Source of the DNA: Anaerolineae bacterium
Lineage (GTDB): Bacteria; Chloroflexota; Anaerolineae; JACIWR01
Assembly: GCA_024653325.1 (NCBI GenBank)
Contig: JANLFX010000001.1
Location: 10,228-74,227, forward strand
Direction of reading: 5' to 3'
Length of the DNA stretch: 64,000 nt
This document shows, in pieces, positions 5,828-59,619 of this stretch. The translations under genes and the position numbers were made by a program. Below the pieces are notes generated by a model. That model searched no databases. It saw nothing but the letters and a program-made list of their open reading frames with translations, and was not told the origin of the DNA. The first letter of the stretch is position 1, and every line of letters starts with the position of its first letter.

Positions 5828-5865
5828 AAGGTTGAGCGAGCGTTTATCATCAGGAGGTGCGCCGA

Positions 5866-6705
5866 ATGGGATACGTTGAGAAATTGATGGGCCAGGGAGA
5901 GAAAGCCGTGTTCGTGGCCCGCCAGCACTGGACCGTGTTGGTGAGCCGCATTTTTAGTTCCGTTTTCACATTCCTGGTGTTTTTGGCAGTGGGATTAGCC
6001 AGTTTCGCGCCAGCAGTTAGCCCCATACTGGGTTTCATACTGCTGGCTGCCCTGATACTCCCTCTCTACGACATCGTGGTCGCTGTTCTCTCCGGCCTGC
6101 GGGGCCGGGAGCTGTTCGGGCGCATCTGGATGCCCATTCTGACCGCCCTGTTCATTCTGGCTTTGAGCATAGCTCTGTTTGTGCCTGGTGCTAATGTAAT
6201 AGCCGGCTGGATTATCCTGCTCATTTCCGTGATCCCCCTGGCCCAGACTATCAAGGTCTTCCTAGACTGGTATAATGAGCAATACATTATCACTAATCAC
6301 CGGGTGATGAGCGTGAGGGGAGTGATCAACAAGCATGTGAGCGATTCCGCCCTGGAGAAGGTAAACGACGTGGTGCTGGAACAGTCGGCTATCGGGCGGA
6401 TTCTGGGATATGGGAATGTGGAGATTATTACCGGCAGTGACATCGGTGCGAATCTGTTTTCGCGGATCACCAATCCGGTTCGTTTTAAGACTGTAATGTT
6501 GAATCAAAAGGATGAGTTGGTGCGGCCCAGAGCCGAACAGCCTGCCCCGGCGACCCAGGTAGCAGCCCCTGCAGTTGTTGAAGAGCAACCAGGCGCGCCG
6601 AATATTCCAGAGTTGATTCAGCAACTGGACGAGTTGAGACAAAAGGGCGTTCTGACCGAGGAAGAGTTTCAGGCTAAAAAGGCCGAGCTGCTAAGGAGGT
6701 TGTAG
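5866..6705 (+). CDS. Membrane protein with bacterial PH (bPH_2/YdbT-like) domain and C-terminal SHOCT domain
   Basis: The ORF track start at 5857 is GTG sitting on the SD. ATG 5866 lies 8 nt after AGGAGG. The protein has 4 predicted TM helices and the C-terminal motif ELIQQLDELRQKGVLTEEEFQAKKAELL, which is SHOCT-like. Confidence 0.7.
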   Translation: MGYVEKLMGQGEKAVFVARQHWTVLVSRIFSSVFTFLVFLAVGLASFAPAVSPILGFILLAALILPLYDIVVAVLSGLRGRELFGRIWMPILTALFILALSIALFVPGANVIAGWIILLISVIPLAQTIKVFLDWYNEQYIITNHRVMSVRGVINKHVSDSALEKVNDVVLEQSAIGRILGYGNVEIITGSDIGANLFSRITNPVRFKTVMLNQKDELVRPRAEQPAPATQVAAPAVVEEQPGAPNIPELIQQLDELRQKGVLTEEEFQAKKAELLRRL

Positions 6706-6735
6706 CTCCACATTTAATCGTGGAGGTGCTTTTTC
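6706..6735 (+). terminator. Rho-independent terminator (CTCCAC-atttaatc-GTGGAG followed by GTGCTTTTT)
   Basis: Hairpin immediately after the TAG stop at 6703-6705, followed by a T-run. Confidence 0.65.
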
Positions 6736-6800
6736 GGCCACAGAACCACACGGAACCGCACAGAAAATTAAACTTTCGGTGAAAATCTGTGTGTTTCTGG
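6727..6800. repeat. Palindromic intergenic repeat family 1, copy B
   Basis: Shares TTTTCgGCCACAGAAcCACACGgAA and GAAAATCTGTGTGTTTCTGggG with 1660-1720. Confidence 0.6.
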
Positions 6801-6841
6801 GGATGGTTCAGAATGGGTTGACACTTTAGTCGAGCAACATA

Positions 6842-6921
6842 CTGTCAACGAATGGTGGAACGAATAAACGAATGGTCAGCATCGCGGTCTATTCGTTTAT
6901 TCGTTGGATATTCGTTGACAG
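6842..6921. repeat. Palindromic CGAAT-iteron element family 2, copy 1 (CTGTCAACGAATGG...ATTCGTTGACAG)
   Basis: An 80-bp element with about 12-bp terminal inverted repeats and internal ACGAAT / ATTCGT iterons. A near-identical copy lies at 37662-37731 and a diverged relative at 10902-11010. Confidence 0.65.
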
Positions 6922-6980
6922 AGAAGTCGCCCAAGCCAAAAAACGAACGGAAAAATAGTGGGGGAGGTTGTGAGTAGTTG

Positions 6981-10901: not shown

Positions 10902-11010
10902 GGATTAAATCACGAATCATAACACAAATGGACGAATGACGTGAATAGCTGAGATAAAATTTTGCCATTCGCTATCCCGTGGAATTCGTGATTGGGGATG
11001 ATTTTAATCC
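10902..11010. repeat. Diverged CGAAT-iteron palindromic element related to family 2
   Basis: GGATTAAATCACGAAT ... ATTCGTGATTGGGGATGATTTTAATCC inverted arms with ACGAAT / GAATGAC iterons. GCCATTCGCTATCCCG is also found at 24001-24025. Confidence 0.45.
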
Positions 11011-11861: not shown

Positions 11862-12149
11862 GAGATCTCCCCTCCGCTGGATTTGACAATACTTGCCTTC
11901 TATGCGATAATCCAGAATAGAATCGCGCCCACCAGGCGCATCGGTGCTATCATAGATTCAGGAGGTGATGCCAATGGACCACTGTAGTAGTACTTCTGGC
12001 GCCGTAGCATCACCTCAGATTATCGAGTAGCTACGGCGCAAAGCAGGGAGAGGGCCTTTCCCTAATCAGGAGAGGCTCTCTTTTTATCCGGACCCTCGAT
12101 ATATCGGGATGCCTGATCTCTTGCGCGAGTAAACGTAACTGCCCGGCCT

Positions 12150-12187
12150 GTCATTCTGAGCGCCCGAAGGGCGCGCCGCAGAATGAC
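12150..12187. repeat. 38-bp near-perfect palindrome GTCATTCTGAGCGCCCGAAGGGCGCGCCGCAGAATGAC inside a 945-bp non-coding region
   Basis: Nested inverted repeats, GTCATTCTG/CAGAATGAC outer and GCGCCC/GGGCGC inner. No flanking T-run. Confidence 0.5.
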
Positions 12188-12717
12188 ATTCGCAGAAGCT
12201 ACGAGCACGCAGTTGGTCTCCAGCCTAAGCAGTCCAGTATACAAGTTACGAGTAAACTAAGTATAGCAGATGTCCAGCCGAGGGGCAAGAAAGGTAATCT
12301 CCGTGGGGTGTGATGATCCATGTTGGAAGGGTGGGCGTCCGGCGGGACAAGCAAGGCAGCAACAAACACCCGATAGGGAGACCGCCAGGAGGCCACTGGC
12401 AAAAAAGAGCCCCCGGCGCCTTAACTGCGGGAGGAAGTCTAGCGCCTGGGGGCTGGGGGGGGTGACTATCCGCGGGGGGTTCTATGGTTTACAATGAGTC
12501 AGGGTTGAGTTACATCATCCGCCTCAAGTCAATTATATATTAACATGCACCGGTTAGACTGTTGTAAGAATTTCCATCAAATTTCACTAAAAAATATGGG
12601 ACTTTAGTGATGTGCTCTGTTTGAGATGGTTCATCTTTTCAGGAAAAGCGGCGCGGGAAGGGAGATAAGAGGGGGGAACTCACGCATCAAAAGTGTTAAC
12701 CAATTGTGAACCATCCC

Positions 12718-12746
12718 TTGACACTCTTGACAAATGGGAATAGAAT
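12718..12746 (+). promoter_or_regulatory. Sigma70-like promoter for the AddA-like gene (TTGACA, 17 nt spacer, TAGAAT)
   Basis: -35 TTGACA at 12718-12723, with a second overlapping TTGACA at 12727-12732, and -10 TAGAAT at 12741-12746. Confidence 0.5.
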
Positions 12747-12806
12747 GATGATGGGGTTCTCAAGAGGTATCGTGAATGAAGGGGAGGTTCAGCTATCTGG
12801 GACGAA

Positions 12807-15800: not shown

Positions 15801-16274
15801 GTGGTAGGTACCCTGGTGCATGAGGCCCTGCGTCGCTGGCGTTTTCCTGATCTGCCTAACTTCGAACCATTCCTGTACCCTTACGCCCTGCAGGCCGGCC
15901 TGACCGACCCGGTCGAGATCGCTGGGGCCATCGGCGAGGCCCGCCGCCTGCTCACCCGCTTCCAGGCCCATCCGCTGTACGCCGAGATGTCCGCTGCCGA
16001 GCGTTACCACGAAGTGCCCTACTGCGCCAGCCTGGAAAATAATTGCCAGGCCGGCATCGTGGATGCGCTGTACCGAATTGATGGACAATGGACCCTGGTC
16101 GAGTTCAAGACCGACGAGATAAGGAATCCTGCTGTCCTTGATGAGCACATCCGCGAAAATGGATACGACCGGCAGGTGCAGGCTTACGTTACCGCCCTGA
16201 CCCCATTACTGGGGCAGCAGCCCCGCGTTCTGTTAGTGTTCCTGAACTGCGGTGGTCAGGTGCGTGTGGTGTAA
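12807..16274 (+). CDS. AddA/UvrD-like ATP-dependent helicase with C-terminal PD-(D/E)XK nuclease domain
   Basis: 1155 aa with a GTG start. Walker A TAGAGSGKTRTL, UvrD motifs VDEFQDTN, GDAKQSIYRFRGAD, TVHKAKGLEF, VAATRAREKL, and C-terminal nuclease motifs DALYRIDGQWTLVEFKTDE. Confidence 0.85.
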   Translation: MAFKTNGLILEEVQPSILSLLQFTGRQAEAVTARDVSLSITAGAGSGKTRTLVGRYLALLAKGLPLRSLVAITFTEKAAREMRTRIRRYVEELLAAGQDSALWESAFAELDAARIGTIHSLCAAILRAHPAEAAVDPGFEVLEEGMAAVLRTQALDNALVWATSDPDAATLFALLKEHELRHVLNSLLNRRLDAIPAFAILGNDPLAVWSARLAVWLDERLAAPNWRDALQTLASLQASTPHDKLELARQQVLAHWDEVQAARMANDWEALFASLIALRHATSTGGAKSNWDADDLLAAREAMSELQAHYDAEIAPVVSKDRPVAWALDRRAAGSLPHLRRLFERTLTEYEQLKEARRALDFDDLEARAVALLENNAEVRARWQSEIRAVLVDEFQDTNERQRRIIYALTGFPSSSPSSPNSSELPESFRSPSSLFIVGDAKQSIYRFRGADVTVFRAVQADVAASGGCCIDLDLTFRAHRPLVEAVNALLRPILGEEDDPARPYRIPFTPLQAYRQRPRDGVREPFVEFHLGLGENAEQGRQAAAAALARRLHQLRAEGFDWGEMALLFRASTAFSVYEDALERAGIPFVTVAGRGFYNRPEVRDVLNALAAIADPADDLALAGLLRSPAFALTDAVLYLLRWGQGEMGREGEGEKLLSFWEALQDEGRLSCLEADDAARACRARQVIADLHELAGRALVAEVLKRFLDVTNYRAILRLIGGGERLVRNVDKLLADAHRSQLVSTGDFLEYVQTLRDVGAREGEAPVEAGGAVQLMTVHKAKGLEFPLVVIADAAHGGGGSSGPVIVTRDLGVVLDLAEAVPGSKNNAHPATYRLAAWHDALMNEAEERRLLYVAATRAREKLIFSGHAKISWAQADPGRLSLGGWLGWLGQVTGLDQVRLSAMPTTAQILDLSWESIPLTCVLYPLPEDTAAIKGMVVDLETVAIQADLVPGDLVAPPVTVEELASDDKTQDRESDPPPRVWRIVPRTQRPTGPAWVVGTLVHEALRRWRFPDLPNFEPFLYPYALQAGLTDPVEIAGAIGEARRLLTRFQAHPLYAEMSAAERYHEVPYCASLENNCQAGIVDALYRIDGQWTLVEFKTDEIRNPAVLDEHIRENGYDRQVQAYVTALTPLLGQQPRVLLVFLNCGGQVRVV

Positions 16275-16328
16275 AATCAGCAAATCAGCAAATCAGCAAA
16301 TCAGCAAATCAGCAAATCAGCAAATCAG
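16274..16328. repeat. Tandem 8-mer repeat (CAAATCAG) x7 overlapping the addA stop codon
   Basis: Perfect direct repeats directly visible. Confidence 0.9.
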
Positions 16329-21025: not shown

Positions 21026-21069
21026 CCTAAAAACACAAATGCGACGCACTTGAGAAGTGCGTCGCATTT
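21026..21069 (-). terminator. Intrinsic terminator of the upstream NTPase gene (14-bp stem AAATGCGACGCACT/AGTGCGTCGCATTT followed by GTGTTTTT)
   Basis: Perfect hairpin 19 nt after the TAA at 21088-21090, with a U-tract on the minus strand. Confidence 0.75.
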
Positions 21070-23980: not shown

Positions 23981-24022
23981 AGTCAGCGAGTCAGCGAGTC
24001 GCCCATTCGCTATTCGCTATCC
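23981..24022. repeat. Short tandem repeats (GTCAGCGA x2.5; ATTCGCT x2) between and overlapping NTPase gene ends
   Basis: Direct repeats visible. The second set overlaps the stop of the 24010-25407 gene. Confidence 0.8.
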
Positions 24023-29661: not shown

Positions 29662-29686
29662 CTGGTTGCTGGTTACTGGTTGCTGG
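29662..29686. repeat. Tandem heptamer (CTGGTTG) x3.5 upstream of yhhQ
   Basis: The same heptamer array occurs in-frame inside the AddB-like CDS at about 781-805, where it encodes ISNQQPV. Confidence 0.8.
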
Positions 29687-33487: not shown

Positions 33488-33590
33488 GGGTTTCAAGTTC
33501 AAGGTTTCAGGTTTCAAGTTCGCTACCAAACCTGACCTGTAACTTGAAACCTATAACTTGAAACCTGAAACTATAACTAACATGGGTGGA
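33488..33590. repeat. Palindromic repetitive element (GGTTTCAAGTT / AACTTGAAACC units) between hdrC and hdrB
   Basis: The left half GGTTTCAAGTTCAAGGTTTCAGGTTTCAAGTT mirrors the right half AACTTGAAACCTATAACTTGAAACCTGAAAC. Its k-mers (AACCTGAAAC, CAGGTT, CAAGTT) are shared with the in-frame insert at 36484-36614. Confidence 0.7.
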
Positions 33591-34469: not shown

Positions 34470-35795
34470 ATGGCTATTGCTCCGATCCAACGGGTACTGA
34501 TCATCGGTGCGGGCATCGCCGGCATGCAGGCCGCGCTGGACATCGCCAACGCCGGCTACGAGGTGGTGCTGGTCGAGCGTGAGCCGTCCATCGGCGGGCG
34601 CATGGCCCAGCTTTCGGAGACCTTTCCCACCCTGGACTGCGCGCAGTGCATCCTGACCCCGCGCACGGTCGAGGTGGGGCATCACGAGCACATCCGCTTG
34701 CGGACATATTCCGAAGTGGAGGCCGTTGAGGGCCAGTTGGGCGACTTCCGGGTGCGCATCCGTCGCCGCGCGGCCTACGTGAACTGGGAGGTATGCACCG
34801 GCTGCGGGCTTTGCCAGGAAAAGTGCCCGAAGAAGGTCATCTCCGATTTCGAGCGAGGTATTGGCCCGCGCAAGGCTATTTACACCTTGTCGCCCCAGGC
34901 AGTGCCCAACAAGCCGGTGATTGACCGCCAGAGTTGCATCTACTTCGAGCGCGGCAAATGCCGGGCCTGCGAGAAGTTCTGTCCCACGGGAGCCATTGAT
35001 TTCGAGCAGGAGGACGCCATCATCGAGGAACGGGTGGGGGCCATCATCGTGGCCACCGGCTACGACCTGTATCCGCTGTCGTTGCTGGGTGAGTACGGCT
35101 ACGGTGAGGTGCCCGACGTGATTGATAGCCTGGCCTTCGAGCGACTGCTTTCGGCCTCCGGGCCGACAGCGGGCCAGGTACGGCGTCCCTCCGACGGCGC
35201 AGAGCCGAAAGAGGTGGTGTTTATCCAGTGCGCCGGCTCGCGGGATCCCGAACTGCACAAGCCCTACTGCTCGAAAATCTGTTGCATGTACACGGCCAAG
35301 CACGCCATGCTCTACAAGCACAAAGTGCACGACGGCCAGGCCTACGTCTTCTACATTGACATCCGTTCCGCGGGCAAGCGCTACGAGGAATTCGTGCAGC
35401 GGGCGATGGAGGAAGAGCGCGTGCTGTACGTGCGCGGCAAGGTGAGCCGCGTCTTCCGCGAGAACGGCAAGGTCATGGTCTGGGGTACGGATACCCTCAG
35501 CGGGCAAAATGTGGAGGTGGCCGCCGATCTGGTAGTCCTGGCCCCGGCCATGGTGCCGAAAGCGGGATCGGACGTGGTGGCGGAGTTGCTGGACCTGGCG
35601 ACTGACGAACACGGCTGGTTCACCGCAGCGGAGGCGAACCTCCAGCCGGTGGAAACAAAACGAGCGGGAGTGTTCCTGGCCGGGGCAGCGGTGGGGCCCA
35701 TGGACATCCCGGAGACGGTGGCCCAGGCCAGTGGCGCGGCGGCGCAGGTGCTCAGCCTGTTCGCGCAGTGGGCGGAAAGGAACGGGAATGCGTAA
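34470..35795 (+). CDS. hdrA: HdrA-like FAD oxidoreductase with inserted ferredoxin domain but no N-terminal or C-terminal cluster domains
   Basis: GAGIAGMQAALDIANAGYEVVLVE is the FAD site. The inserted 2x[4Fe-4S] ferredoxin is CTGCGLCQEKCP...CRACEKFCP. CAGSRD...YCSKICCMY also present. Confidence 0.8.
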   Translation: MAIAPIQRVLIIGAGIAGMQAALDIANAGYEVVLVEREPSIGGRMAQLSETFPTLDCAQCILTPRTVEVGHHEHIRLRTYSEVEAVEGQLGDFRVRIRRRAAYVNWEVCTGCGLCQEKCPKKVISDFERGIGPRKAIYTLSPQAVPNKPVIDRQSCIYFERGKCRACEKFCPTGAIDFEQEDAIIEERVGAIIVATGYDLYPLSLLGEYGYGEVPDVIDSLAFERLLSASGPTAGQVRRPSDGAEPKEVVFIQCAGSRDPELHKPYCSKICCMYTAKHAMLYKHKVHDGQAYVFYIDIRSAGKRYEEFVQRAMEEERVLYVRGKVSRVFRENGKVMVWGTDTLSGQNVEVAADLVVLAPAMVPKAGSDVVAELLDLATDEHGWFTAAEANLQPVETKRAGVFLAGAAVGPMDIPETVAQASGAAAQVLSLFAQWAERNGNA

Positions 35796-37593
35796 AATCG
35801 GCATTTTCGTCTGTCACTGCGGACTCAACATCGCCGGCACCATTGACGTGCAGCGGGTGGTGGAGGAAATCAAGAAGTACCCCGGCGTGGCCTTCGCCGC
35901 CGACTACAAGTACATGTGCTCGGACCCCGGCCAGGCGCTCATCCGGCAGGCCATTGCCGATTATGGGCTGGACGGCATCGTGGTCGCCGCCTGTTCACCG
36001 GCGATGCACGAGGTGACTTTCCGCAAAGCGGCTCGCGCGGCGGGGGTCAACCCCTATCTGACCGAGATCGCCAACATCCGCGAGCAGATAAGCTGGGTGC
36101 ATCAGACGCAGCCCGAAGAAGCGACACGCAAGGCTATCGAGACCATCGCGACCATCGTCGAGAAGGTGCGCTACGACGAAGCATTGGTGCCTTTCAGCCT
36201 GCCGGTGGTCAAGCGGGCGCTGGTCATCGGCGGAGGCATCGCTGGCATGACGACGGCGTTGCACATCGCCGACGCCGGTTATCCGGTGGTGCTGGTCGAG
36301 CGGGAGGCGCAGCTCGGTGGAAAGATGCGTCAGCTTTCGGGGCTGTACCTCAACTTCGACGCCGCGCCCGATCTGTTGGAAACCAAAATCGCGGCGGTGA
36401 TGCAGCATCCCAACATCCAGGTGCTTACCAATGCTGAAGTAGTAGAGCTTGGTGGATACGTTGGCAACTTCACCGTTAAGATCAGTTCCAGGTTCCAGGT
36501 TCCAGGTTACAAGTTACAAGTTCCAGGTTCTGAGATAGCCCAATCAGGAATAAACCCTCAACCTGAAACCCTGCAACCTGAAACCCTGCAACCTGAAACC
36601 CCGCAACCCGAAACTTTCACCTTCGACATCGGCGCTATCGTGGTCGCCACCGGCTTCGATCTGCTGCCCAAGTCCGAGCTGGGCGAATACGGCGGCGGTC
36701 GCCCACCGGACGTGATTGACGGCCTGCAGTTCGAGCGGATGCTGGCCGAGGGTGAGATTCGTCGTCCCTCCGACGGAGCGGTGCCGAAAGAGGTGGTGTG
36801 GGTACAGTGCGCCGGTTCCCGCGACCCCGAATTGCACATGCCCTACTGCTCGAAGATATGTTGCATGTACGTGGCCAAGCAGGCCATGGCCTACAAGCAG
36901 CGCGTCCCCGACGGCCAGGCCTACGTCTTCTACATTGACATCCGTTCCCAGGGCAAGGGCTACGAGGAATTCGTGCAGCGGGCGATGACTGAGTACGACG
37001 TGCTTTACCTGCGCGGCAAGGTGGCCCGCGTTTTCGAAGAGGATGGGCGGGTGGTGGTGTACGGTGTGGATACTCTCAGCGGCAAGGCGGTCGAGGTGCA
37101 GGCTGATTTGGTGGTGCTGGCCACGGCGGTGGTACCCAGCGCCGGGGCCCGCGACCTGGCCCAGCGATTGCGTGTCTCCACCGACGAGTACGGCTTCTTC
37201 TCCGAGGCGCACCCCAAGCTGCGCCCCGTGGAGAGCCTGACGGCGGGCATCTTCTTGGCCGGAGCGGCCCAGTTCCCCAAGGACATCCCGGAGACCGTGG
37301 CCCAGGCCAGCGGGGCGGCAGCCAAAGTGTTGGGCCTGTTCGCCCAGCGGGAGATGGTACAGGAGCCGACCATCGCTTTCGTAGACGAGGAGTTGTGCGC
37401 CGGCTGCGGACTGTGCGTGGCCGCCTGCCCCTACGAGGCGCGGGTAATGCATCCCTGGAAGCCCATCGCCGTGGTGCAGACGGCGTTGTGCCAGGGTTGC
37501 GGAGCGTGTGTGGTGGCCTGTCCCAACAAGGCCAGCTCGCTGCGCAATCTGTCTACGGAGCAGTTGCTAACCATGATGGAGCCGGTGTTGTGA
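35788..37593 (+). CDS. hdrA: Second HdrA-like subunit: N-terminal Cys-rich domain, FAD domain with a repeat-encoded linker in place of the inserted ferredoxin, and a C-terminal 2x[4Fe-4S] ferredoxin
   Basis: ATG 35788 has an AAAGGAACGGGA SD and overlaps the hdrA1 stop (ATGCGTAA). Motifs IFVCHCGLNIAG...VVAACSP, GGGIAGMTTAL, CAGSRD...YCSKICCMY and CAGCGLCVAACP...CQGCGACVVACP. Confidence 0.8.
   Translation: MRKIGIFVCHCGLNIAGTIDVQRVVEEIKKYPGVAFAADYKYMCSDPGQALIRQAIADYGLDGIVVAACSPAMHEVTFRKAARAAGVNPYLTEIANIREQISWVHQTQPEEATRKAIETIATIVEKVRYDEALVPFSLPVVKRALVIGGGIAGMTTALHIADAGYPVVLVEREAQLGGKMRQLSGLYLNFDAAPDLLETKIAAVMQHPNIQVLTNAEVVELGGYVGNFTVKISSRFQVPGYKLQVPGSEIAQSGINPQPETLQPETLQPETPQPETFTFDIGAIVVATGFDLLPKSELGEYGGGRPPDVIDGLQFERMLAEGEIRRPSDGAVPKEVVWVQCAGSRDPELHMPYCSKICCMYVAKQAMAYKQRVPDGQAYVFYIDIRSQGKGYEEFVQRAMTEYDVLYLRGKVARVFEEDGRVVVYGVDTLSGKAVEVQADLVVLATAVVPSAGARDLAQRLRVSTDEYGFFSEAHPKLRPVESLTAGIFLAGAAQFPKDIPETVAQASGAAAKVLGLFAQREMVQEPTIAFVDEELCAGCGLCVAACPYEARVMHPWKPIAVVQTALCQGCGACVVACPNKASSLRNLSTEQLLTMMEPVL
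36484..36614 (+). repeat. In-frame tandem-repeat insert inside hdrA2 ((AGGTTCC)x6 then (AACCTGAAACCCTGC)x3.5), encoding QVPGYKLQVPGSEIAQSGINPQPETLQPETLQPETPQPET
   Basis: The repeat arrays are in the nucleotide sequence. Unit lengths 7x6=42 and 15 keep the frame. The position matches where HdrA1 carries its ferredoxin insert. Confidence 0.8.
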
Positions 37594-37609: not shown

Positions 37610-37638
37610 GTGCGACGCACCTCTCAGGTGCGTCGCAC
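37610..37638 (+). terminator. GC hairpin GTGCGACGCACCT-ctca-GGTGCGTCGCAC after hdrA2
   Basis: 12-13 bp perfect stem 17 nt after the TGA. No U-tract. Confidence 0.45.
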
Positions 37639-37661
37639 GTGACAAATGTGAGTGAGACCTT

Positions 37662-37731
37662 TGTCAACGAATGGCGAAACGAATAAACGAATGTCGGACC
37701 ATGCGTTTATTCGTTGGCTATTCGTTGACAG
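37662..37731. repeat. Palindromic CGAAT-iteron element family 2, copy 2
   Basis: TGTCAACGAATGGCGAAACGAATAAACGAATG...TTTATTCGTTGGCTATTCGTTGACAG. More than 85% identical to 6842-6921. Confidence 0.65.
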
Positions 37732-39803: not shown

Positions 39804-40085
39804 TTGGGTTACCGCCGTCTATTGGGAGGGAGACCCGTGTCACAAGCCAATGTGAAATTGACGATTCCCTTCGAGTCGCTGGTTGAATCCATCACCAGGC
39901 TGGGCCTCAAGGAGAAACTCCGGCTTTGGCAATTGCTCACCGAGCAAATCGCCCAGCTAGAGGAAGAGCTATGGGAGCAGGACCCAATTGCTCAGGCCGA
40001 GATTCGGGAGGCACGCGAGGCCTACCAGGCTGGGGACTATGTGACCATTGATGAGTACCTTGCCCGTCAGCAGAGCAAAAGCTGA
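39804..40085 (+). CDS. Putative antitoxin of a RelE/ParE-type toxin-antitoxin pair
   Basis: Small acidic ORF with a TTG start at 39804 or GTG at 39837, each after a GGGAGG box. Its stop overlaps the toxin ATG (TGATG). Confidence 0.45.
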   Translation: MGYRRLLGGRPVSQANVKLTIPFESLVESITRLGLKEKLRLWQLLTEQIAQLEEELWEQDPIAQAEIREAREAYQAGDYVTIDEYLARQQSKS

Positions 40086-40347
40086 TGAATTACCAGGTCC
40101 TCGTCCCCAAGCCGGTGCAAAAACATTGGATGGTTTGCCCGAAAACGTACGCAGGCGGATTATTCAGCGAATCGTGGCATTGAAAGAGAACCCACGTCCA
40201 CCAGGGTCTGTCAAATTGAAGGGTTACGAGAACGAGTACCGAATCCGCGTGGGCGACTATCGGGTGAGATACGAAGTTTGGGACAACGAGGCCGTTGTAC
40301 TGTTGCTGCATTGCGGGCATCGGAAAGATGTGTACAGGCGGCGCTGA
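40085..40347 (+). pseudogene. RelE/ParE-family toxin gene with a 1-nt frameshift in an A5 tract
   Basis: ATG 40085 gives MNYQVLVPKPVQK, a typical RelE N-terminus. The remainder, TLDGLPENVRRRIIQRIVALKENPRPPGSVKLKGYENEYRIRVGDYRVRYEVWDNEAVVLLLHCGHRKDVY, is in the -1 frame. The frames meet in CAAAAAC at 40117-40123, and one extra A would restore an 87-aa protein. Confidence 0.55.
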
Positions 40348-43300: not shown

Positions 43301-44869
43301 TACACCTGCTCTCAGGACACGCAGCAGCGCATCAAGGAGCGCATCGAGGAGTACGGGCTGAACCGCGTGGTGGTGGCTTCCTGCACGCCGCGCACTCACG
43401 AGCCCCTGTTCCAGGATACGCTCCGCGAGGCCGGGCTGAACCCTTACTTCTTCGAGATGACCAATCTGCGCGAGCAGGATTCGTGGGTGCACCGTGCTTT
43501 TCCGGAACTGGCCACGCTCAAGGCCAAGGAGCTGGTGCAGATGGCGGTGGCCAAAGCGCGATGGCTGCGGCCCTTACCCCGCCTGCGTTTCGACCTGGTG
43601 CACAGTGCCCTGGTCATCGGCGGGGGGCTTTCCGGGATGACGGCGGCGCTGTCCATCGCCGACCAGGGCTATCCGGTGCATCTGGTGGAACGGGAGCCGG
43701 AGCTGGGCGGTCATCTGCGGCATATCCACTACGGCCTCGGCGAAGAGGACCCTCAGCGTCTGTTGCGCGAGACCATCGCGCGCGTGGAAAGCCATCCGCG
43801 CATCCATGTTTACAAGAACAGCGAGATAACGGACATCTCCGGCTACGTGGGCAAGTTCCAGACCACGCTGGCTTCCATGGACGGCCAGCAGACCACGGTG
43901 GAGCATGGGGTGGTAGTGGTGGCCACGGGGGCCAAAGCGGTGGAGCCGACCTCGTATTTGTACGGCCAGGACGAGCGGGTGCTGACCCAAGTGGAGCTAG
44001 AGGAGCGATTGGCCCAGAAAGACGGGTCGCTGGCTCAGGCGGACACGGTGGTCATGATCCAGTGCGTGGAGTCCCGGGACGAGCAACGCCCCTATTGCAG
44101 CCGCATCTGCTGTTCGCAAGCCATCAAGAACGCGCTGCGCCTCAAGGAGTTGAACCCGCGGGCCCGCGTCTACGTCCTTTACCGCGACATTCGCGCCTAC
44201 GGCTTCCGTGAGCTATACTACCAGCAGGCTCGCCAGGCGGGAGTGGTCTTCCTCCCATATGACGCGGAGGACAAGCCCCGTGTGGAAGTGGCGGATGGGC
44301 GGCTACGGGTAGAAGCGACCATGGTGGGCATGGTGGGCATGGCGGGTGAGGTGCTGACGTTGGAGCCCGATTACCTGGTCCTCAGCACCGGCATTGAACC
44401 GGGCGACAACAGCGCGCTGGCCCAGTTGTTGAAGGTGCCTCTCAACGAGGACGGTTTCTTCCTGGAGGCGCATGTCAAGCTGCGGCCTCTGGATTTCGCC
44501 GTGGACGGGGTGTATTTGTGTGGCCTGGCCCATTCCCCGAAGTCGGTTGAGGAGTCCATGGCCCAGGCCCACGGGGCAGCCATTCGGGCAGTGACCATGC
44601 TCTCCCGCGAGTACATCGAGACCCCGGGCACGGTGGCCACCGTCAATGAGCGGCTGTGCAGCGGCTGCGGGTTGTGCGTCGCCGCCTGTCCCTACGACGC
44701 GCGCCGGATAGATGAGGAGCGGCACATCGCTGAGGTCATCACCGTGCTCTGCCAGGGATGCGGGGCCTGCGTGGTGGCCTGTCCCAACGGAGCCAGTCAG
44801 CACCTCGGTTTCGAAATGCGGCAGGAATTGGCTAAAATAGATGCGGCGCTGAGTTATGCGGAGGCGTGA
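40382..44869 (+). CDS. Giant fusion oxidoreductase: an HdrA-like FAD domain split by a GltD/NfnB-like NAD(P)H-flavin module, followed by a second complete HdrA-like unit
   Basis: 1495 aa with a TTG start after AGAGGTG. HdrA FAD motif VVGGGIGGMQAALDLAGAGF. Ferredoxin CTGCGDCAQACP. GltD-type CRHACPIH...GRICNHRCEDECSR and IAIVGSGPAGLTAAHDL. Also CLSCGICSECLECVYAC and CIGSRD...YCSAVCCMY. The second unit has VFICHCGINIGAVVDV, LVIGGGLSGMTAALSIADQGY and a C-terminal CSGCGLCVAACP...CQGCGACVVACP. Confidence 0.75.
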   Translation: MGSESDSVVRSDSVVGAVLVVGGGIGGMQAALDLAGAGFKVYLLEEKPAIGGIMAQLDKTFPTNDCAMCIMSPKLVECGRHLNIEIITGAELQELRGQPGNFTAVVHQRARFVDLDKCTGCGDCAQACPVKLPDLFNAGLAERKAIYKLYPQATPNAYAIEKRGTSPCRHACPIHQRAQGYIALIREQRYAEAYRVIKEDNPFPAICGRICNHRCEDECSRNKVDEPISIMALKRFVVDRVQDMEREPITPPQRIHEERIAIVGSGPAGLTAAHDLVKMGYGVTVFEALPVAGGMMRVGVPEYRLPAKLIQREIDDILALGVELKLNTRVDDVDALLKDGYAAVFLAVGAHQGRKLRIPGADLPGVLLNTDFLRQVRLGERPALGERVLVLGGGNVAVDVARTAVRLGAKEVYMSCLEGRESMPAHPWEIAEAEEEGVRIFPGRTFKEIVARDGRVAGVRCWEVDFRGFTADGRLDMDEFPETEHIIEADTVIFAIGQMPDLRLLGEDGQIRMTRQRTIEVDPETLVTGKPGVFAGGDVVTGTAFVVEAIAAGHKAARSIDRFLRGEELGAREPVLQPKVELSAEEIRERLEQGDIVPRPRARARNLPVEERVNNFCEVSLGLSEEEALAEAQRCLSCGICSECLECVYACKAGAVNHEMTDQVRELNVGAVILTPGVELFDARLKGEYGYGYYPNVVTSIEFERILSASGPFGGHVQRPSDGKEPKRIAWLQCIGSRDAACGQDYCSAVCCMYAIKETIIAKEHLPGVETTVFFLDIRAFGKDFDKYYETARTRHGVRFIRSFVSSVKQVPGTKNLRITYVGEDGELREEEFDLVVLSVGLRPTASAQEMARRLGLQLNRFGFCESEAFAPTETTRPGVFVAGAFGEPKDIPETVVEASCAAAHASRLLAPARGTLTRVKEYPPERDVSDEEPRVGVFICHCGINIGAVVDVPQVVEYAKTLPGVAYAEHNLYTCSQDTQQRIKERIEEYGLNRVVVASCTPRTHEPLFQDTLREAGLNPYFFEMTNLREQDSWVHRAFPELATLKAKELVQMAVAKARWLRPLPRLRFDLVHSALVIGGGLSGMTAALSIADQGYPVHLVEREPELGGHLRHIHYGLGEEDPQRLLRETIARVESHPRIHVYKNSEITDISGYVGKFQTTLASMDGQQTTVEHGVVVVATGAKAVEPTSYLYGQDERVLTQVELEERLAQKDGSLAQADTVVMIQCVESRDEQRPYCSRICCSQAIKNALRLKELNPRARVYVLYRDIRAYGFRELYYQQARQAGVVFLPYDAEDKPRVEVADGRLRVEATMVGMVGMAGEVLTLEPDYLVLSTGIEPGDNSALAQLLKVPLNEDGFFLEAHVKLRPLDFAVDGVYLCGLAHSPKSVEESMAQAHGAAIRAVTMLSREYIETPGTVATVNERLCSGCGLCVAACPYDARRIDEERHIAEVITVLCQGCGACVVACPNGASQHLGFEMRQELAKIDAALSYAEA

Positions 44870-44913
44870 AACGTGAGAACGTGAAACGCGAAACGTGAAG
44901 CGTAAAACGTAAG
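44864..44913. repeat. Degenerate tandem repeat (GTGAAACG-like unit, about 6 copies) overlapping the stop of the giant hdrA gene
   Basis: GTGAAACGTGAGAACGTGAAACGCGAAACGTGAAGCGTAAAACGTAAG. Confidence 0.75.
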
Positions 44914-59552: not shown

Positions 59553-59584
59553 GCAAATCGGCAAATCGGCAAATCGGCAAATCG
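59553..59584. repeat. Tandem 8-mer (GCAAATCG) x4 between the two GT-C genes
   Basis: Perfect direct repeats. The unit is related to the CAAATCAG array at 16274-16328. Confidence 0.85.
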
Positions 59585-59619
59585 CAAGTGGGCAAACACG
59601 CATCTGTCAACTAACCAGG

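Follow-up and report, generated by a model that had tools for sequence, protein, structure and literature searches.

A dispersed family of hairpin repeats with ACGAAT iteron arms in Chloroflexota

Among described systems, REPINs (REP doublets forming hairpins; REP, repetitive extragenic palindromic sequence) combine conserved ends with a variable spacer, fold into a hairpin, are randomly distributed in extragenic space, show compensatory changes and occur in ordered clusters (Bertels & Rainey 2011, PMC3116915). CGTC-tagged REPs, with 8–9 bp stems and 4–5 nt loops per unit, have no known dedicated transposase and are unreported in Chloroflexi (Di Nocera et al. 2013, PMC3733652). Chloroflexus aurantiacus is the reported bacterium richest in satellites, with heptamer repeats (PMC6749651). 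Here we analysed a 64-kb stretch (64,000 nt, the window) of contig JANLFX010000001.1 from an Anaerolineae bacterium, which holds two copies of a palindromic repeat, copy 1 (6842–6921) upstream of a purine-nucleoside phosphorylase gene (punA) and copy 2 (37661–37731) upstream of an HdrC-like gene. Our favored interpretation, held with moderate confidence, is that both are dispersed non-coding hairpin repeats native to Chloroflexota, with REPIN/REP-type behavior and arms that are recognized by a putative conserved factor.

The two copies share one layout, namely CYGTCAACGAAT, a spacer of 4–5 nt, AACGAATAAACGAAT, a loop, ATTCGTTTATTCGTT, a second spacer of 4–5 nt and ATTCGTTGACRG. In copy 1, the left terminal box (6842–6853, CTGTCAACGAAT), a spacer (6854–6858, GGTGG) and the left inner box (6859–6873, AACGAATAAACGAAT) are followed by a 17-nt loop (6874–6890), the right inner box (6891–6905, ATTCGTTTATTCGTT), a spacer (6906–6909, GGAT) and the right terminal box (6910–6921, ATTCGTTGACAG). 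The corresponding parts of copy 2 are the left terminal box (37661–37672), a spacer (37673–37677, GGCGA), the left inner box (37678–37692), an 8-nt loop (37693–37700, GTCGGACC), the right inner box with one mismatch (37701–37715, ATGCGT), a spacer (37716–37719, GGCT) and the right terminal box (37720–37731). No strand was assigned to either copy; both were defined from sequence, a covariance model (R1) and the DNA fold, and copy 2 also from orthologous copies in three related loci (L213, L214 and L215; loci are given as L numbers throughout). The initial annotation had put the identity of the copies above 85%, and in a global alignment 64 of the 71 aligned bases are identical (90%), apart from a 9-nt loop indel, with the differences in the spacers and loop and the ACGAAT hexamers spared. 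The terminal inverted repeats it described (TGTCAACGAAT/ATTCGTTGACA) and the internal iterons are present, with three (A)ACGAAT iterons per arm, and the palindrome is 1–4 nt longer than it gave, since a C-Y-G-T/A-C-R-G extension pairs. As it also reported, the elements end in TTGACAgag (both terminate in TTGACAGAG) and lie 60–70 bp upstream of plus-strand gene starts: copy 1 is 59 nt before the punA ATG (6981), and 66 nt separate copy 2 from GTG 37798, the likely hdrC start, with its GAGGAG ribosome-binding site.

Covariance model R1, built from 46 family members and run over the window, matched exactly copies 1 and 2 among the window sequences (85.1 bits, E 4.8e-20; 74.5 bits, E 3.3e-17). At up to three mismatches, AACGAATAAACGAAT occurs four times in the window versus 0.62 expected. 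Fold prediction, which had been suggested as a check, gave very stable hairpins for both copies (DNA, −25.9 kcal/mol and z −8.9 for copy 1, −26.8 kcal/mol and z −10.2 for copy 2). On either strand, the range is −24 to −27 kcal/mol for DNA (z about −9 to −10) and −34 to −43 kcal/mol for RNA, the RNA hairpins being stronger on the sense strand (−42.9 kcal/mol for copy 1 and −39.0 for copy 2) than on the antisense strand (−33.9 and −35.1).

We searched for further copies by scanning 185,579 species-representative genomes with the arm pattern ACGAAT-N4-8-AACGAATAAACGAAT (21 fixed bases), for which about 1.4 matches are expected by chance in 596 Gb. At least 118 stretches match, with many further copies in both related and distant Chloroflexota genomes. 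The matches listed come from 66 assemblies with up to at least seven loci per assembly, and 61 of these assemblies are labeled Chloroflexota (Anaerolineae/Anaerolineales, Thermoflexales/Thermoflexus, Caldilineaceae, Chloroflexus, Roseiflexus, Ca. Chloroploca and Ca. Aquidulcis). Among the five listed assemblies with other labels, L005 (‘Acidobacteria’) and L088 (‘Armatimonadetes’) have canonical hairpins, and the remaining three have low-GC iteron arrays. Exact arms occur in at least three classes. A tolerant search of the fetched loci recovered 226 arms versus 0 in shuffles, including 73 plus-then-minus pairs, i.e. hairpins. Loops are mostly 7–43 nt, a Chloroflexaceae subclass near 89 nt forms tandem arrays with a 200-bp period (e.g. 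L011), and the largest interior between two arms is 669 nt. Searches of the window, of the local region (E ≤ 10) and of 20 element-bearing loci against Rfam 15 gave nothing relevant: no family reached its gathering score, and the only matches were chance miRNA-like ones (E ≥ 0.14). We also found no description of the motif, or of REP/MITE-like repeats (MITE, miniature inverted-repeat transposable element) in Chloroflexota, in the searchable literature.

Across the family, the unit consists of two inverted arms around a loop of 7–90 nt. Each arm has a 12-nt terminal box (CYGTCAACGAAT), a variable spacer of 4–5 nt and a 15-nt inner box of two tandem 8-mers (AACGAATA AACGAAT), with box spacings fixed at 11–12 and 8 nt and a terminal CYGTCAAC that recurs in dozens of species. 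The spacer is 4 nt in 67% of arms and 5 nt in 23%, is mostly non-complementary, and is unequal (4/5) in 20 of 58 hairpins. The inverted repeat reaches four positions past CAACGAAT (C-Y-G-T...A-C-R-G). Stem cells are paired in 94.3% of cases, and changes on both sides of the stem number 45 versus 14.4 in shuffles (0 of 500 shuffles reach 45), concentrated in the outer four pairs. Arm identity between assemblies is 0.95, while loop identity is 0.45 between assemblies (0.43 for shuffled loops) and 0.71 within assemblies. As arms are alike across assemblies and loops only within them, each lineage has amplified its own loop variant with the arms staying nearly the same. Some by-catch variants have several hexamers of both arms changed together (CACGAAT type in L007, L028 and L085; ACGGAT type in L030). 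In seven loci (L022, L051, L063, L116, L003, L038 and L104), a TTCG mini-hairpin is inserted in one spacer, which hints at folding without fixing the transcribed strand.

Comparison with related loci shows that copies enter intergenic DNA, persist there and are inherited vertically. Copy 1 lies between a bPH/SHOCT-domain gene (5857–6705), which is directly followed by a terminator-like hairpin (6706–6735), and punA. Among 80 metagenomic loci that encode homologs of the punA product (52–80% identity), the gene order xerD, (bPH), punA and a gene of unknown function is kept in many. No arm or covariance-model match was found in these 80 loci (388 kb), where about 12 would be expected at the density of the window; the family is therefore patchy. 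In the closest syntenic relative (L132, 80% amino-acid identity, with about 75–81% in four syntenic proteins), 9 nt separate the bPH stop from the punA ATG versus 272 nt in the window, so copy 1 and its flanks are an insertion in this lineage. Apart from the repeat, the linkage of xerD, (bPH/SHOCT), punA and a conserved 240–250-aa protein is stable across dozens of contigs (L132–L206) and is unexplained.

Copy 2 is flanked by an HdrA-like gene, which ends at 37593, and the HdrC-like gene. Its orthologs occupy the same place at the hdrA–hdrC junction in L213, L214 and L215 (HdrB 89% and 85% identical), with the same loop and spacers, and the element is absent from the junction in L216 (HdrB 81% identical); the operon-like cluster is conserved with or without it. 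One inner-stem pair is A-T in the window and L213, A.C in L214 and G-C in L215, L214 and L215 having identical HdrB proteins. Two further A-to-G changes in the orthologous copies give G.T on the sense strand. Considering that these events are too few and that mismatches are balanced family-wide, a constraint at the RNA level cannot be argued from the orthologs of copy 2. A covariance-model match in L215 (2476–2567) was set aside, as this perfect inverted repeat lies at the end of a contig and is probably an assembly artefact.

Genomic context was assessed using gene calls from a simple caller self-trained on codon usage; its map of the window was sensible (87% coding). Of 98 assessable sites, 84 are intergenic and most of the remainder clip the ends of open reading frames (ORFs). 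The intergenic sites are tandem in 51 cases, divergent in 18 and convergent in 15, which tracks the background of 62, 23 and 16 kb of intergenic length, respectively. The orientation bias relative to genes that the initial annotation proposed to look for did not appear: orientation, set by the G-rich spacers, agrees with the genes in 8 cases and disagrees in 5, solo arms face genes in 32 versus 31 cases, and an element near-identical to copy 1 (L061) has the opposite orientation relative to its genes. Likewise, G.T and A.C mismatches in stems are balanced (25 versus 27; 11 versus 13 among oriented elements). An RNA with a defined strand is therefore unsupported, given these balanced mismatches and the 8 versus 5 gene orientation.

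The copies carry no gene and make no target-site duplication. For 56 elements, no direct repeat of 3–9 bp was found at any of eight boundary offsets, and 2-bp direct matches at the boundaries fall inside the palindrome only. To assess neighbors, 596 predicted proteins were clustered all-against-all, and Pfam was run on enriched or adjacent genes. In agreement with the earlier impression that the downstream genes are unrelated, no gene family is enriched beside copies; neighbors include aconitase, GrpE, PheT, penicillin-binding proteins and STAND NTPases. Mild enrichment is confined to NACHT/FGE-sulfatase and STAND-TPR genes, and probably just reflects their abundance in these genomes. No autonomous parent insertion sequence (IS) with the same ends was found in the fetched loci. 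A phage stoperator or phage vector was considered and rejected, as 12 IMG/VR contigs have single arms or 8-mer arrays only and no full hairpin; BLAST of phage and plasmid collections gave no matches.

A few loci hold arms in other arrangements. In L067 (679–1401), two arms 669 nt apart bracket a gene for a 149-aa GxxExxY protein (TIGR04256, PD-(D/E)XK-type), which is not a transposase, and L039 (5961–6594) has a hairpin with a frameshifted GxxExxY gene some 100 nt away. The association may be fortuitous, or these hairpins may be the target of a small nuclease gene. As an autonomous partner, however, the GxxExxY nuclease is a weak candidate, being bracketed once (L067), adjacent once (L039) and otherwise absent. 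In a Chloroflexi metagenome-assembled genome (MAG), the gap of about 425 nt between cas1 and cas2 (L082, 5924–6347) is filled by mosaic repeats (three TATGTTCACCTCAG modules) and one ACGAAT arm; this is another case of repeats invading normally tight junctions. Elsewhere, a single arm without a hairpin is fused to the conserved module GC[TG]CAAGGTGTGCCTGACTCTGAGGTGAAC... (L015, L016, L031, L082, L095 and L099 in CAKZKA01; L017, L032 and L056 in JBDNDG01), and the fusion is repeated in direct orientation in the CAKZKA01 and JBDNDG01 MAGs. The arm therefore also circulates within other composite repeats.

Lack of positional bias and maintained stem pairing hold across the family, and each lineage amplifies its own loop variant as the arms stay nearly the same. 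Under the REPIN/REP-type interpretation, the arms would be the cis-recognition module of a conserved trans-acting protein, which might be a recombinase, a transposase or another iteron-binding factor. This putative factor would probably act on a folded single strand or a cruciform, since the base of the stem co-varies and a compensatory change has restored pairing at a mismatch. Any influence on punA and hdrC would be incidental. If transcribed, the elements would form an RNA hairpin of −39 to −43 kcal/mol within the leader or inter-cistronic RNA, which could stabilize upstream mRNA or attenuate read-through without being a dedicated punA or hdrC regulator. A more specific version, which we offer only tentatively as one possibility, is that the iteron arms are the cis-site of a vertically inherited, Chloroflexota-specific recombinase/transposase system, that is, a resident replicator akin to REPINs and their REP-associated tyrosine transposases (RAYTs) that pre-dates the split of Chloroflexia, Anaerolineae and Limnocylindria. 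Its recognition logic would comprise three 7–8-nt iterons per arm, a folded-DNA substrate and no target-site duplication.

The features in common with REPIN–RAYT systems are a length of about 70–100 nt, two highly conserved inverted ends, a less conserved spacer, a long hairpin in single-stranded DNA or RNA, random extragenic spread, compensatory changes, ordered tandem clusters, no target-site duplication and long vertical persistence. The arm design differs, however. A known REP is an imperfect palindrome of 20–40 bp with a GTAG-type head, whereas the arm here consists of direct iterons (CAACGAAT-N4-5-AACGAATAAACGAAT, three ACGAAT) and has neither internal complementarity nor such a head. 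In addition, none of the copies here was seen to have a RAYT or other HUH gene nearby, and identical arms range over several classes within a phylum, where those of REPINs keep to a single genus or species group. With CGTC-tagged REPs the family shares head-to-head pairs, and many copies begin with CGTC or TGTC (variant tags of that super-family) followed by A-rich stem positions, but the arms are 27–31 nt and have no internal stem-loop. E. coli bacterial interspersed mosaic elements (BIMEs) and REP clusters are alike in having tandem arrays in which units alternate in orientation and linkers are of two types (here L011, L023 and L115) and in forming mosaics with other short modules, as around copy 1; they differ in sequence and unit structure, and the repeats here are not depleted from divergent intergenic regions. 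Like MITEs derived from DDE-type elements, the copies are small, non-coding, multi-copy and intergenic, with 12-nt terminal boxes (CYGTCAACGAAT/ATTCGTTGACRG) and TG...CA ends. Their repeated sub-terminal motifs recall the multiple transposase-binding sites at the ends of IS21, Tn7 or Mu. Against this, target-site duplications are missing from every boundary, the fetched loci gave no parent IS sharing these ends, and the largest interior is 669 nt; a DDE-type MITE was rejected for lack of the duplication. The suggestion of REP/MITE-like elements thus stands in the REP/REPIN sense, considering the many further copies, unrelated contexts and empty orthologous sites, and fails in the strict MITE sense. 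The initial annotation had also held that simple chance duplication would become more likely if there were no further copies or no positional bias: further copies are abundant, and positional bias is absent.

Several points weigh against a REPIN/REP-type system. No mobilizing protein was found near copies, and no transposase families were found among 50 genes adjoining solo arms. The HUH-Y1 motif (six-frame regular expression) is absent from about 1.3 Mb of fetched loci, which sample 1–7 loci per genome, and a lone RAYT locus may have escaped this sampling. As the arms are not palindromic REPs, the recognition logic of RAYT/IS200 proteins may not apply. The near-identity of arms across classes exceeds that of usual REP families, which differ between species, and could point instead to a host function. 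Some of the evidence also has limits of its own: the gene caller is crude and the context proportions are approximate, and the search demanded one exact arm per locus, biasing the sample to conserved arms, such that the unbiased measure of conservation is given by partner arms only (mostly 0–3 mismatches).

Copy 1 is embedded in a longer composite repeat (about 6796–6964), as judged from the close relative MAG-31 (JACIWR01), where copies 82–95% identical to copy 1 over 85–165 bp lie in unrelated loci. On the plus strand, the left flanking module (6796–6841, GGGATGGTTCAGAATGGGTTGACACTTTAGTCGAGCAACATA) is 82–92% identical, palindrome included, in L014, L097, L019 and L073, from related Anaerolineae MAGs, whose contexts are otherwise unrelated. 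The right flanking module (6922–6964, plus strand, AGAAGTCGCCCAAGCCAAAAAACGAACGGAAAAATAGTGGGGG) is common to L014 and L061, with 92–95% identity over 129–165 bp including the palindrome. A solo left module without the palindrome lies on the minus strand at 12690–12724 (arms 6793–6827 and 12690–12724 are 83% complementary), within 945 nt without a confident gene (11862–12806) between lgt (minus) and a UvrD-like helicase gene (plus), a region with no Rfam match. The diverged third copy proposed at 10902–11010 (no strand) is an AT-rich imperfect palindrome with CACGAAT/ATTCGTG motifs and at most a decayed or distant relative: the covariance model gives only 15.4 bits (E 0.16), its fold is no better than shuffles (z −0.84), and it has no match among the related loci. 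The ATTCGCT repeats at 24003–24022, also put forward as relatives, have no covariance-model match at all, and the 14-mer they share with 10966–10980 is at chance level (by our estimate, about 7 shared 14-mers per 64 kb). Both were rejected as family members.

The window holds further repeats. A second iteron hairpin of like architecture and different unit (GTTTCAAG/GTTTCAGG facing CTTGAAAC/CCTGAAAC; 33489–33572, DNA fold z −6.0) lies between two co-directional genes; this GTTTCARG palindrome is also found in palindromic form in L105, with unit arrays in L115 and the viral contig L129. Under the tentative recombinase/transposase version above, the family may be one of several sister systems on other units, of which such GTTTCARG hairpins would be an example. 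Two small hairpins (37610–37640 and 21041–21065) have a common stem (GCGACGCAC/GTGCGTCGC). The former, just upstream of copy 2, is absent at the orthologous junction in L213–L215 and is therefore a further small insertion. Perfect or near-perfect tandem repeats of 7–8 nt are AAATCAGC x6.9 (16274–16328, starting at the last base of the stop codon of the UvrD-like gene), CGTGAAA x6.4 (44865–44910), GCAAATCG x5.6 (59553–59596) and CTGGTTG x3.6 (786–810 and 29662–29686). Inside the hdrA-like ORF (35731–37593), a 39-residue in-frame insertion (SRFQVPGYKLQVPGSEIAQSGINPQPETLQPETLQPETPQP, 36485–36614) is missing from the 86%-identical ortholog in L213. Its DNA runs (GTTCCAG)n then (AAACCCTGCAACCTG)n and is weakly palindromic (z −2.1), and it looks like an intergenic-type composite of short tandem repeats inserted in frame into a gene. 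Finally, two small overlapping ORFs (93 and 99 aa; 39804–40347) lie between an acetyltransferase-like gene and a gene for a 1495-aa Hdr/Fer4 protein. The second, ending ...YRIRVGDYRVRYEVWDNEAVVLLLHCGHRKDVYRRR, reads like a RelE/ParE-type toxin. In L216 the corresponding gap measures just 64 nt, so the two look like an inserted candidate toxin–antitoxin pair.

Other explanations of the hairpins were weighed against this evidence. The arms might bind a conserved Chloroflexota DNA- or RNA-binding protein, or the RNA hairpin might act as an mRNA 3′-end stabilizer or terminator, with copies kept by host selection. The nucleoid-associated or gyrase/IHF-type factors of E. coli REPs and BIMEs provide a model for such binding. 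Exact arms in at least three classes, a spacer held to 4–5 nt in 90% of arms, and the retention of the same copy 2 loop through speciation with a compensatory change restoring pairing are all consistent with this, as is the location of both window copies inside co-directional gene runs, where transcription would cover them and where the sense-strand RNA hairpin is the stronger. Nevertheless, we consider it unlikely, as the family is patchy (0 arms in the 388 kb of punA loci versus 2 per 64 kb here), relatives have empty orthologous sites, there is neither depletion from divergent intergenic regions nor orientation bias, and the balanced G.T/A.C mismatches leave no RNA-strand signature. With its AT-rich stem and no U-tract, the hairpin does not qualify as a canonical intrinsic terminator, and an intrinsic terminator scan found none at either element. 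Alternatively, ACGAAT hairpins could be by-products of short tandem repeats, i.e. palindromic arrangements of a 7–8-nt unit that slippage and template switching produce without any dedicated trans-acting factor. The inner box is indeed two tandem 8-mers, pure (ACGAATRR)n or 20-mer arrays exist (L048, L072, L091, L111 and L128), the window has the other 7–8-nt repeats and the recurring GTTTCARG unit, and Chloroflexus aurantiacus is rich in heptamer satellites (PMC6749651). These satellites and the heptameric short tandemly repeated repetitive (STRR) sequences of cyanobacteria are alike in having intergenic 7–8-nt units that are shared across genera and also occur as direct arrays. In contrast, the repeat here is a discrete insertable element with a fixed three-box inverted architecture and a specific terminal box. 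Slippage leaves the fixed arm and the terminal CYGTCAAC in dozens of species unexplained, along with the near-identical 130–165 bp composite copies in unrelated loci and the insertion into a 9-nt junction, and we regard it as rather improbable.

A common operator or promoter module, which the initial annotation had raised with TTGACA as a −35-like hexamer, would make this a −35 element or regulator-binding site co-controlling punA and hdrC. The position of both copies 59–66 nt upstream of a plus-strand start, ending in TTGACAGAG, fits this idea, which is extremely unlikely and already largely refuted. The σ70 promoter reading was rejected because TTGACA has no −10 partner 16–18 nt away in either copy (nor, by eye, in the orthologous copies), and 0 promoter-like sites were found in either region. 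The family has no positional or orientation bias and no common neighbor, copies also lie in convergent intergenic regions, L061 is in the opposite orientation, none of the 80 punA relatives carries the element, and the hdrA–hdrC cluster exists with or without it. By analogy, one could also read the hairpin as an attC-type folded-DNA recombination site, in which AAC/GTT terminal boxes, unpaired spacers and a variable loop would be recognized by a tyrosine recombinase. The layouts are alike (inner and outer paired boxes in an imperfect palindrome, a central spacer that is unpaired and often unequal, a highly variable loop of 7–90 nt and GTCAAC...GTTGAC), there is no target-site duplication, and an XerD-type gene lies 1 kb upstream of copy 1. 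That gene scores as XerD (338 bits, over the cut-off) but not as an integron integrase (131 against 265), and the xerD–punA linkage is kept in relatives without the element. Moreover, copies are single and dispersed over all intergenic contexts, with no same-orientation cassette arrays beside an integrase, and, unlike attC sites, in which structure and not sequence is maintained, they show strong sequence conservation. An attC-type site is thus very unlikely.

The hairpins lie inside operons (hdrA–hdrC) and between normally abutting genes (bPH–punA here, cas1–cas2 in L082), and their placement will affect operon prediction, MAG assembly breakpoints and possibly mRNA stability. Copies 1 and 2 should not be taken as a sign that punA and hdrC are co-regulated. 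As REP/REPIN-type repeats are well studied mainly in Proteobacteria, a Chloroflexota family whose arms are built differently, and are near-identical over several classes, would carry the phenomenon into a deep-branching phylum, and it predicts a conserved DNA-binding or processing protein.

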